From Acinetobacter phage PhabP_R1: a DNA stretch of 48,117 bases. This document shows positions 19,283 through 19,400 of this stretch, in pieces. Each line of letters opens with the position of its first letter. Within the stretch, counting starts at the first letter, position 1. The notes beneath the pieces were generated by a model. The model saw nothing but the letters and a program-made list of their open reading frames with translations. It did not search any database and was not told the DNA's origin. Where the stretch lies: the sequence record PQ568402.1. One strand, given 5' to 3'. The translations under genes and the position numbers were made by a program.

Positions 19283-19400
19283 ATATTTAAACCTAATCAT
19301 AAATTATTTTCACCTATGGTTTAATTTATGCTTGCTTTTATTTTATACCTTTGGTTTAATAAATCTCACCAGATAACAAAAAAGTCCCAGACATCTGACC
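19283..19400. promoter_or_regulatory. OL/PL-like operator-promoter region, partial duplicate of OR
   Basis: Shares TATTTAAACCTAAT and AAATTATTTTCACCTATGGTT with 15741-15801. Holds palindromes CACCTATGGTT and TACCTTTGGTT. Confidence 0.5.

Follow-up and report, generated by a model that had tools for sequence, protein, structure and literature searches.

Does the short segment downstream of the methylase gene of Acinetobacter phage PhabP_R1 hold a second set of operators for the repressor of this phage? The question was raised by a sequence-only reading of record PQ568402.1 (48,117 nucleotides; the whole stretch is called the window here), in which bases just past the methylase gene were said to repeat bases of the cro/cI intergenic region (OR), with a lambda-like order of genes around the two. 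We followed it up within the window and among related loci. From the sequence comparisons given below we judge it very likely that 19284-19362 serves a lambdoid Acinetobacter phage as its left operator-promoter, the equivalent of OL/PL. The features on which the argument draws are collected in Table 1.

Table 1. Features of the OR and OL loci and of the genes around them (positions in the window)
Feature	Position	Strand	Basis or remark
cro-like 76-aa HTH regulator, first gene of the rightward early operon	15498..15728	-	phrog_35 transcriptional repressor, E 9e-10
OR	15732..15848	.	dyads, half-sites, putative PR
OR TTAAACC half-sites	15732-15738; 15743-15749
OR 17-bp dyad TTAAACCATGAGTTAAA	15765-15781
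OR 17-bp dyad TTCAACCTATGGTTGCT	15788-15804
OR 17-bp dyad TTTAACCAAAGGTTTCA	15832-15848
Putative PR	-35 TTGTAA 15809-15804; -10 AATAAT 15787-15782	-	16-nt spacer; promoter scan
cI-like repressor, HTH_3 + Peptidase_S24 (probable start)	15853..16599	+	Pfam HTH_3 1e-6, Peptidase_S24 1e-21; phrog_4 1e-42
Whole cargo cassette, co-oriented with cI	16609..19230	+
73-aa ORF, cargo, cI-oriented	16609-16830	+
760-aa protein, HSDR_N + N6 methyltransferase + half Type I specificity domain, cI-oriented	16948-19230	+
Intrinsic terminator closing the cI-methylase transcript	19241..19272	+	8-bp stem, then T-run
Conserved left joint TCTATTAAAGCATA	19272..19285	.	BLAST breakpoints
Putative weak OL3 TTAAACCTAATCATAAA	19287..19303	.	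perfect left half, poor right half
OL2 dyad TTTCACCTATGGTTTAA	19308..19324	.	8 bp upstream of PL -35
OL1 dyad TTATACCTTTGGTTTAA	19343..19359	.	closest consensus match (1 mismatch), over PL spacer and -10
Putative PL	-35 TTGCTT 19332-19337; -10 TTTAAT 19355-19360	+	17-nt spacer; predicted start near 19367-19368
Conserved ATCTCAC, right joint of the OL module	19363..19369	+	transcription-start region
Leader hairpin	19378..19412	-	A6 19378-19383; stem GTCCC 19384-19388 / GGGAC 19404-19408; then T4
Candidate (-) promoter	19430..19457	-	TTGCTA 19457-19452, 16-nt spacer, TGt-CATAAT 19435-19430; also in promoter scan
Left operon	19433..24207	+	ORF layout, profile matches
66-aa ORF of the left operon	19433-19633	+
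phrog_12104, then DUF551		+
Sak4-like annealase	20281-20949	+
SSB	20962-21621	+
Gp157, followed by small ORFs	21676-22191	+
96-aa HTH/Xis-like	23917-24207	+
Tyrosine integrase, 339 aa, convergent with the left operon	24204..25223	-	Pfam Phage_integrase 1e-21

Gene order around the two loci

By BLAST, identity over positions 15000-20500 is 100% with Acinetobacter phage 5W and 98-99% with many temperate phages of A. baumannii, several of which are classed as Vieuvirus; the phage is a lambdoid, Vieuvirus-like Acinetobacter phage. A (+)-strand integrase, as in phage 5W, was ruled out, the gene lying here on the (-) strand. At the same position phage 5W carries a different integrase on the (+) strand, and the region past the integrase matches LPAB85 and LPAB65 at ~95%. 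The different integrase marks the window as a mosaic relative of 5W, distinct from 5W itself.

The gene order agrees with the layout that had been proposed from the letters alone: the cro-like gene on the (-) strand, OR, the cI-like gene, two cargo genes (the 73-aa ORF and the 760-aa methylase), an intrinsic terminator, operator-like repeats, and on the strand of cI an operon of recombination and excision functions (Sak4-like, SSB, DUF551, Gp157, Xis-like) with the integrase adjacent to it. In profile searches the cro-like protein gave weak matches to P22_Cro and YdaS. Beyond its gene the (-) strand encodes an 88-aa regulator, a DnaD-like protein, DnaB and, further on, a Q-like antiterminator (8618-9118). 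No tRNA was found by ARAGORN. The "methylase" is a single 760-aa fusion, of which the HSDR_N part makes up a nuclease-like N-terminus; separate R and S genes are absent.

The repressor gene lies between OR and OL and is transcribed toward OL, and its product combines an HTH with an S24 self-cleavage domain (Pfam, ORF layout). The longest ORF (15796-16599) starts inside the operators; the start is probably ATG 15853 or 15862, and more likely the former. The alignment of a related repressor, of the type called R11 below, with that of the window begins at MKVMSTMVERIQ, which points to one of these two starts. In the deposited annotation of phage 5W the repressor is read from the first ATG (15796), within operators and promoters. 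A similar case is the annotated 101-aa ORF at 19328-19633, which begins within OL; ATG 19433 is the likelier start.

Within OR, the spacer of the putative PR holds the dyad at 15788-15804 and its start site holds that at 15765-15781, and the third dyad stands directly upstream of the cI start.

Repeats common to OR and OL

The first claim of the sequence-only reading was that 19284-19322 repeats a 14-mer and a 21-mer of OR. Exact copies of the 14-mer TATTTAAACCTAAT stand at 15740-15753 and 19284-19297, and there is no other in the window, even with one mismatch; in 100 shuffles its mean count was 0.14, and in none of them were two copies reached. The 21-mer is not an exact repeat: AAATTATTTTCACCTATGGTT (19301-19321) and its counterpart AAATTATTTTCAACCTATGGTT in OR (15780-15801) share 12 + 9 bases on the two sides of a 1-base indel (TTTTCAACCTATGGTT in OR, TTTTCACCTATGGTT in OL). 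The coordinates given for OR (15741-15801) pointed to the right region, with positions off by 1.

Dyads of the form ACC-N3-GGT are found at 15792 and 15836 in OR and at 19312 and 19347 in OL. ACCTATGGTT occurs at both 15792 and 19312, and ACCAAAGGTT at 15836 has its reverse complement, ACCTTTGGTT, at 19347, just as had been noticed for a further palindrome of this region. The OR window (start 15718) ranks first among all 130-nt windows of the 48 kb, both strands included, for the 8-mers of 19284-19362, with a score of 26 against 10 for the next best (mean 0.86, sd 1.76).

Counts of the motif alone are less telling. The bare motif ACCNNNGGTT has 7 matches window-wide against 3.3 expected, and the 17-mer consensus with at most 3 mismatches has 8 against 4.4; neither is significant. 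With at most 2 mismatches, all four matches to TTAAACC-N3-GGTTTAA are in OR or OL. Since the bare counts are not significant window-wide, weight was put on location and on the comparative tests. The extended similarity of the two loci, AAATTATTTTCA(A)CCTATGGTT, takes in the PR -10 of OR, and therefore part of the resemblance may be a relic of duplication and not a requirement of binding. AAATTATTTTCA itself, which is the PR -10 in OR and stands outside the 17-bp dyad, may be such a relic or may reflect a wider contact.

Operators and a putative promoter at OL

OL would consist of two good sites, OL1 and OL2, and one weak site, OL3. The 14-mer described above is best read as the good half-site of this putative third operator. 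Repressor dimers would recognise 17-bp dyads with the consensus TTAAACC-N3-GGTTTAA, possibly in a cooperative manner. In a lysogen, repressor on OL1 (over the PL spacer and -10) and on OL2 (next to the -35) would shut off the Sak4/SSB/Gp157/Xis-like operon and, together with repressor on OR, both early operons, by a logic like that of lambda. RecA-stimulated self-cleavage through the S24 domain would then release repression.

A generic promoter scan gave no (+)-strand promoter in 19284-19400, and the sites that it gave overall numbered 12 against 16.9 in shuffles. PL was placed by homology of position with the promoters of other OL types, and not by the scan. The putative PL of the window, which is positionally equivalent to those promoters, matches 8 of 12 consensus positions and is without the -11 A, because of which it is missed by a generic scan; its exact -10 and start site are predictions. 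No other promoter was found for the recombination and excision genes after the terminator. The left operon needs a promoter past this terminator. The terminator would insulate PL from the cI-methylase transcript. In relatives its stem is kept and its loop is variable.

An analogue of N/nut was not found: the leader (19368-19432) is without a GCTCTT-type boxA, and its only hairpin is long-looped and terminator-like. The first gene of the left operon (66 aa) had no family match, and N-like proteins are hard to detect.

OL varies with the repressor among heteroimmune relatives

The comparison covered 88 related loci, to which one scan, anchored at the C-terminal end of the methylase, contributed 80. 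Many of them are near-duplicates, so that the independent evidence is the number of types and not the number of loci. The relatives have the methylase, the terminator and then the joint TCTATTAAAGCATA in common and diverge past it, for which reason similarity to heteroimmune relatives ends at ~19285 (BLAST breakpoints). Identity of the methylase cassette among them is ~98-100%.

It can be seen that, first, the 88 loci divide into at least 10 types by their post-terminator segment, each type with palindromes of its own, and that the palindromes of each OL type recur in the cro/cI intergenic region (OR) of the same phage. They include ACC-N3-GGTTTAA (this window), ATCGGA / TCCGAT, TTTACA / TGTAAA, TAAG-N4-CTTA, TTAGG-N5-CCTAA, TTGAACA / TGTTCAA, TTAAC-N4-GTTAA and others. 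In a blind search the best upstream match of each OL core was the cro/cI divergent region in most loci. Secondly, when shared 7-mers were counted in a 10 x 10 matrix, the mean was 24.5 for OR and OL of the same phage as against 7.3 for foreign pairs, and the diagonal sum was reached by 0 of 100,000 permutations. Thirdly, the table of repressor N-terminal-domain type versus OL type is near one-to-one: the two types agree in 60 of the 65 interpretable loci, displaced OLs included.

The only off-diagonal signal in the 7-mer matrix joins types R1 (this window) and R11. Their repressors are 34% identical over the whole protein and nearly the same in their HTH regions, and their operators have a common consensus, TTAAAYC-N3-GGTTTAA, and a 35-bp spacing of OL1 and OL2. 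Type R11 has a promoter, TTGCAT-17-TTTAAT, at the position of PL, and a weak third OL site at the same relative position as OL3 of the window. In the related type of locus L056 the weak third site, at the position equivalent to OL3, lies 23 bp from the next site.

In 8 of 10 OL types a near-consensus sigma-70 promoter, TTGACx (or TTTACA)-17-TAnnnT, points into the left operon, at the same distance from the terminator and 2-3 nt before the conserved TCTCAC. In these eight types the spacer and -10 are covered by one operator, and a second stands directly against the -35.

The type-by-type table could arise by linkage alone, as OL is only ~3.5 kb from cI and many loci are near-duplicates. Linkage cannot explain, however, as judged from the words themselves, that each OL is built from the words of its own OR. 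The comparison shows that the repeats are predicted specificity determinants, and not a product of chance. The OL/PL assignment made from the letters alone gains support from the comparison (at least 10 types); the weak PL of the window counts against it, and it needs correction in that an N/nut analogue was not found and the integrase is on the opposite strand. We consider it very probable that this is the OL/PL counterpart of the phage, a piece of ordinary phage biology previously unmapped in the phage group.

Other possible functions of the OL sites

A different role for the same sites is that they bind repressor mainly for a loop with OR, 3.5 kb off, which would tighten repression of PR and autoregulate cI, the left operon being driven mainly otherwise. 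In lambda, OL acts on OR3/PRM through repressor-mediated looping. Three sites at each locus, a cassette spacing between OR and OL kept at ~3.4-3.9 kb, the weak PL of the window and an S24-type C-terminal domain of the repressor, as in lambda cI, are all consistent with a loop. A strong promoter is nevertheless embedded in the sites of most OL types, and the distance between OL and OR shifts by 0.6-1.4 kb in some relatives, so we regard looping as the main function of OL as rather unlikely. It extends the OL/PL explanation more than it excludes it.

It has also to be considered whether 19284-19362 has no regulatory function and resembles OR only because the OR/PR core was once partly duplicated or copied by gene conversion, or because the segment serves as a recombination joint in the exchange of modules. 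The shared strings do exceed the 17-bp dyads, AAATTATTTTCA being the PR -10 in OR, and on both sides of the region stand conserved joints at which relatives cease to be similar. A relic, however, would not be formed anew in each of 10 or more immunity types, with dyads particular to the type set around a promoter whose position does not change, nor would it stay matched to the repressor type after the insertion of extra cargo; this explanation therefore seems highly improbable.

It seems just as improbable that the sites act on a leftward (-) promoter within OL that runs collinear with PR and whose transcript would be antisense to the 3' end of the methylase gene, since the direct orientation of the OR/OL similarity, a (-)-strand GTGAGA-18-TAAAAT (19369-19340) and the PR -10 AATAAT copied at 19308-19303 are outweighed by the lack of a -35 for the copied -10 (CATAAA stands at 16-nt spacing), by the 9/12 match of the GTGAGA site in a scan that found fewer sites than shuffles did, by the (+) consensus promoters of other OL types, and by the need of the (+) operon for a promoter after the terminator. 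Lack of a -35 also ruled out a PR-like (-) promoter at OL. For the OL/PL assignment, a rightward promoter under repressor control, the comparative evidence remains the main support.

Displaced and mismatched OL loci

In about 15 loci the methylase and OL are set apart by 0.6-1.4 kb of additional cargo, bracketed by a second copy of the terminator (e.g. L047). The view that 15 loci lack OL was rejected; their OL is displaced by the inserted cargo, and the agreement of repressor and OL type extends to these loci. The duplicated terminator around the cargo block suggests a hotspot for moron insertion. In L047 the block (5631-7030) has a 90-aa ORF with a LapA domain, a 167-aa membrane-like ORF, a small ORF and a 96-aa ORF on the (-) strand.

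The repressor and OL do not match in five loci. Four of them (L012, L033, L037 and L070) have an OL with a non-matching repressor, and L018 has no OR and a repressor with a truncated N-terminus. The OL of these five lies, depending on the locus, ~60 to 1,540 nt past the methylase stop. These loci may be natural recombinants that arose via the conserved cassette, defective prophages or chimeric assemblies. Therefore, either the matching of OL and repressor is not absolute, or some assemblies are chimeric.

Relation to known systems

The closest parallel is lambda, with its OL/PL and cI-rexAB. Both have a cI-type repressor with an HTH and a LexA-like self-cleaving domain, two loci, separated by a few kb, with three 17-bp dyad operators each, cargo co-transcribed with cI and placed between cI and OL, operators that overlap the left promoter (in the present phage a putative one) of the recombination and excision genes, and a Q-like late antiterminator. 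There are differences, too. An N gene or nut site was not detected here, and the first PL gene is a variable small ORF. The operator consensus (TTAAACC-N3-GGTTTAA) is unrelated to that of lambda, and the spacings, 21 + 35 bp in OL and 23 + 44 bp in OR, are unlike those of lambda. The cargo is a methyltransferase fusion and not rexAB, int is on the opposite strand, and PL is a weak consensus match.

As in heteroimmune lambdoid phages (434, 21, P22, HK97 and others), the operators covary with the DNA-binding domain of the repressor, and at both ends of a module lie conserved joints through which it is exchanged by recombination. What differs is that the determinants are split here into two parts, namely cro-OR-cI N-terminal domain and OL. 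The ~2.9 kb between these two immunity modules is nearly identical across heteroimmune phages of the group. Therefore, a single crossover can mismatch the modules, and 5 of 65 loci look as if this had happened.

In Ab105-2phi, a member of the same phage group, deletion of the CI gene gives clear plaques (PMC6921023), and such prophages are being turned into lytic therapeutic phages by CI deletion (PMC6921023). The published Ab105-2phi primers ATGGACAAATTTATGGCTAC and CGTTACTTCTATCGGAAT, of which the latter lies within OR, identify this phage as type R5. In the literature searched, no operator or promoter mapping and no sRNA data were found for these phages. Clinical A. baumannii very commonly carries prophages of the Vieuvirus type. 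A map of OR, OL and PL, with at least 10 immunity specificities and their operator words, would make superinfection immunity groups predictable from sequence; it explains where heteroimmune relatives recombine and gives defined targets for engineering. The mechanism follows the lambda paradigm and opens no new question; only the split immunity modules and the predicted antisense RNA described below are possibly unexpected to a specialist. Worth following up are the catalogue of immunity types, the split specificity modules around the methylase cassette and the predicted antisense RNA.

A hairpin and a predicted antisense RNA in the PL leader

The hairpin in the PL leader (19378-19412) reads as a canonical terminator on the (-) strand (6 U) and as a weak one on the (+) strand. 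The leader consensus obtained with MAFFT/RNAalifold was poor, with the 3' arm misaligned, and therefore stems were inspected and folded variant by variant. Across relatives the stems are wholly different and always complementary (GTCCC, GTCCCG, GCACGC, CCGCC, GCCCTG, GCCCCG and GCACAC-type), the differences being compensatory. On the (-) strand, 5-7 U follow the stem in all hairpin types. On the (+) strand there are 2-4 T in six positions, and none in the type of L013.

A candidate (-) promoter overlaps the ATG of the first gene of the left operon. In 7 of 8 groups of unrelated first-gene variants, TTGnnn-(16-18)-CATA(A/C)T lies over the ATG. The background of TTG at the -35 position is 5-7%, which gives P ~8e-6 for five of six independent groups. 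The predicted (-) RNA would be ~47 nt long (~19423 -> ~19378), with a complementarity to the PL leader that reaches as far as the SD, and the predicted start sites of this RNA and of PL converge ~55 bp apart. Rfam gave no match on 19150-19750 at the E-value threshold, nor on the whole window at gathering thresholds.

We propose, tentatively, that the PL leader encodes a conserved ~47-nt cis-antisense RNA, which would silence leaky expression of the left operon in the lysogen. Its means would be pairing beside the RBS, promoter interference or both. If this is true, a layer of RNA is placed on an immunity system with two DNA specificity modules that are separable by recombination. Short antisense RNAs are known in phages, such as oop of lambda and sar of P22, and face-to-face promoters are known in coliphage 186. 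The predicted RNA resembles these in being a short (-) transcript with its own promoter and intrinsic terminator, complementary to an early mRNA leader by the RBS, and the start sites are predicted to converge as in 186. It differs from oop and sar in that its target would be the PL leader, and not cII or ant, and it has no Rfam match.

The same hairpin could instead be an element of the (+)-strand leader, for example an attenuator in need of an antiterminator, a 5' stabiliser or a fold masking the RBS, and we hold this to be possible to much the same degree. The hairpin does lie in the PL leader and its (+) fold has z = -3.2; a Q-like antiterminator is present; and pairing is possible between ATCTCAC (19363-19369) and, at the SD, GTGAGA (19422-19427), with variants that change compatibly. 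This pairing is weakened by the predicted PL start (~19367), which is inside the proposed outer stem. The comparison of strand stability does not settle the orientation, the (+) strand being more stable in ~4/10 hairpin types. On the other side, the U-tract is 5-6/6 on the (-) strand in every type as against 2-4 on the (+) strand, where the L013 type has none, several variants have C x A on the (+) strand where the (-) strand has G.U, and the leader has no boxA-like GCTCTT.

The first gene after PL (19433-20013 in the window, with equivalent positions in L003-L088) varies greatly: at least 6 unrelated small ORFs occur there, several of which have a hydrophobic segment. The leader 5' of this gene and the genes 3' of it recombine independently of it. 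In addition, the hairpin loops (19389-19403 and the corresponding loops of relatives) in many cases keep a GACCGAC / GGCGAC / GACGGA-like motif though the stems differ completely; this conserved motif hints at a sequence-specific contact beyond antisense pairing.
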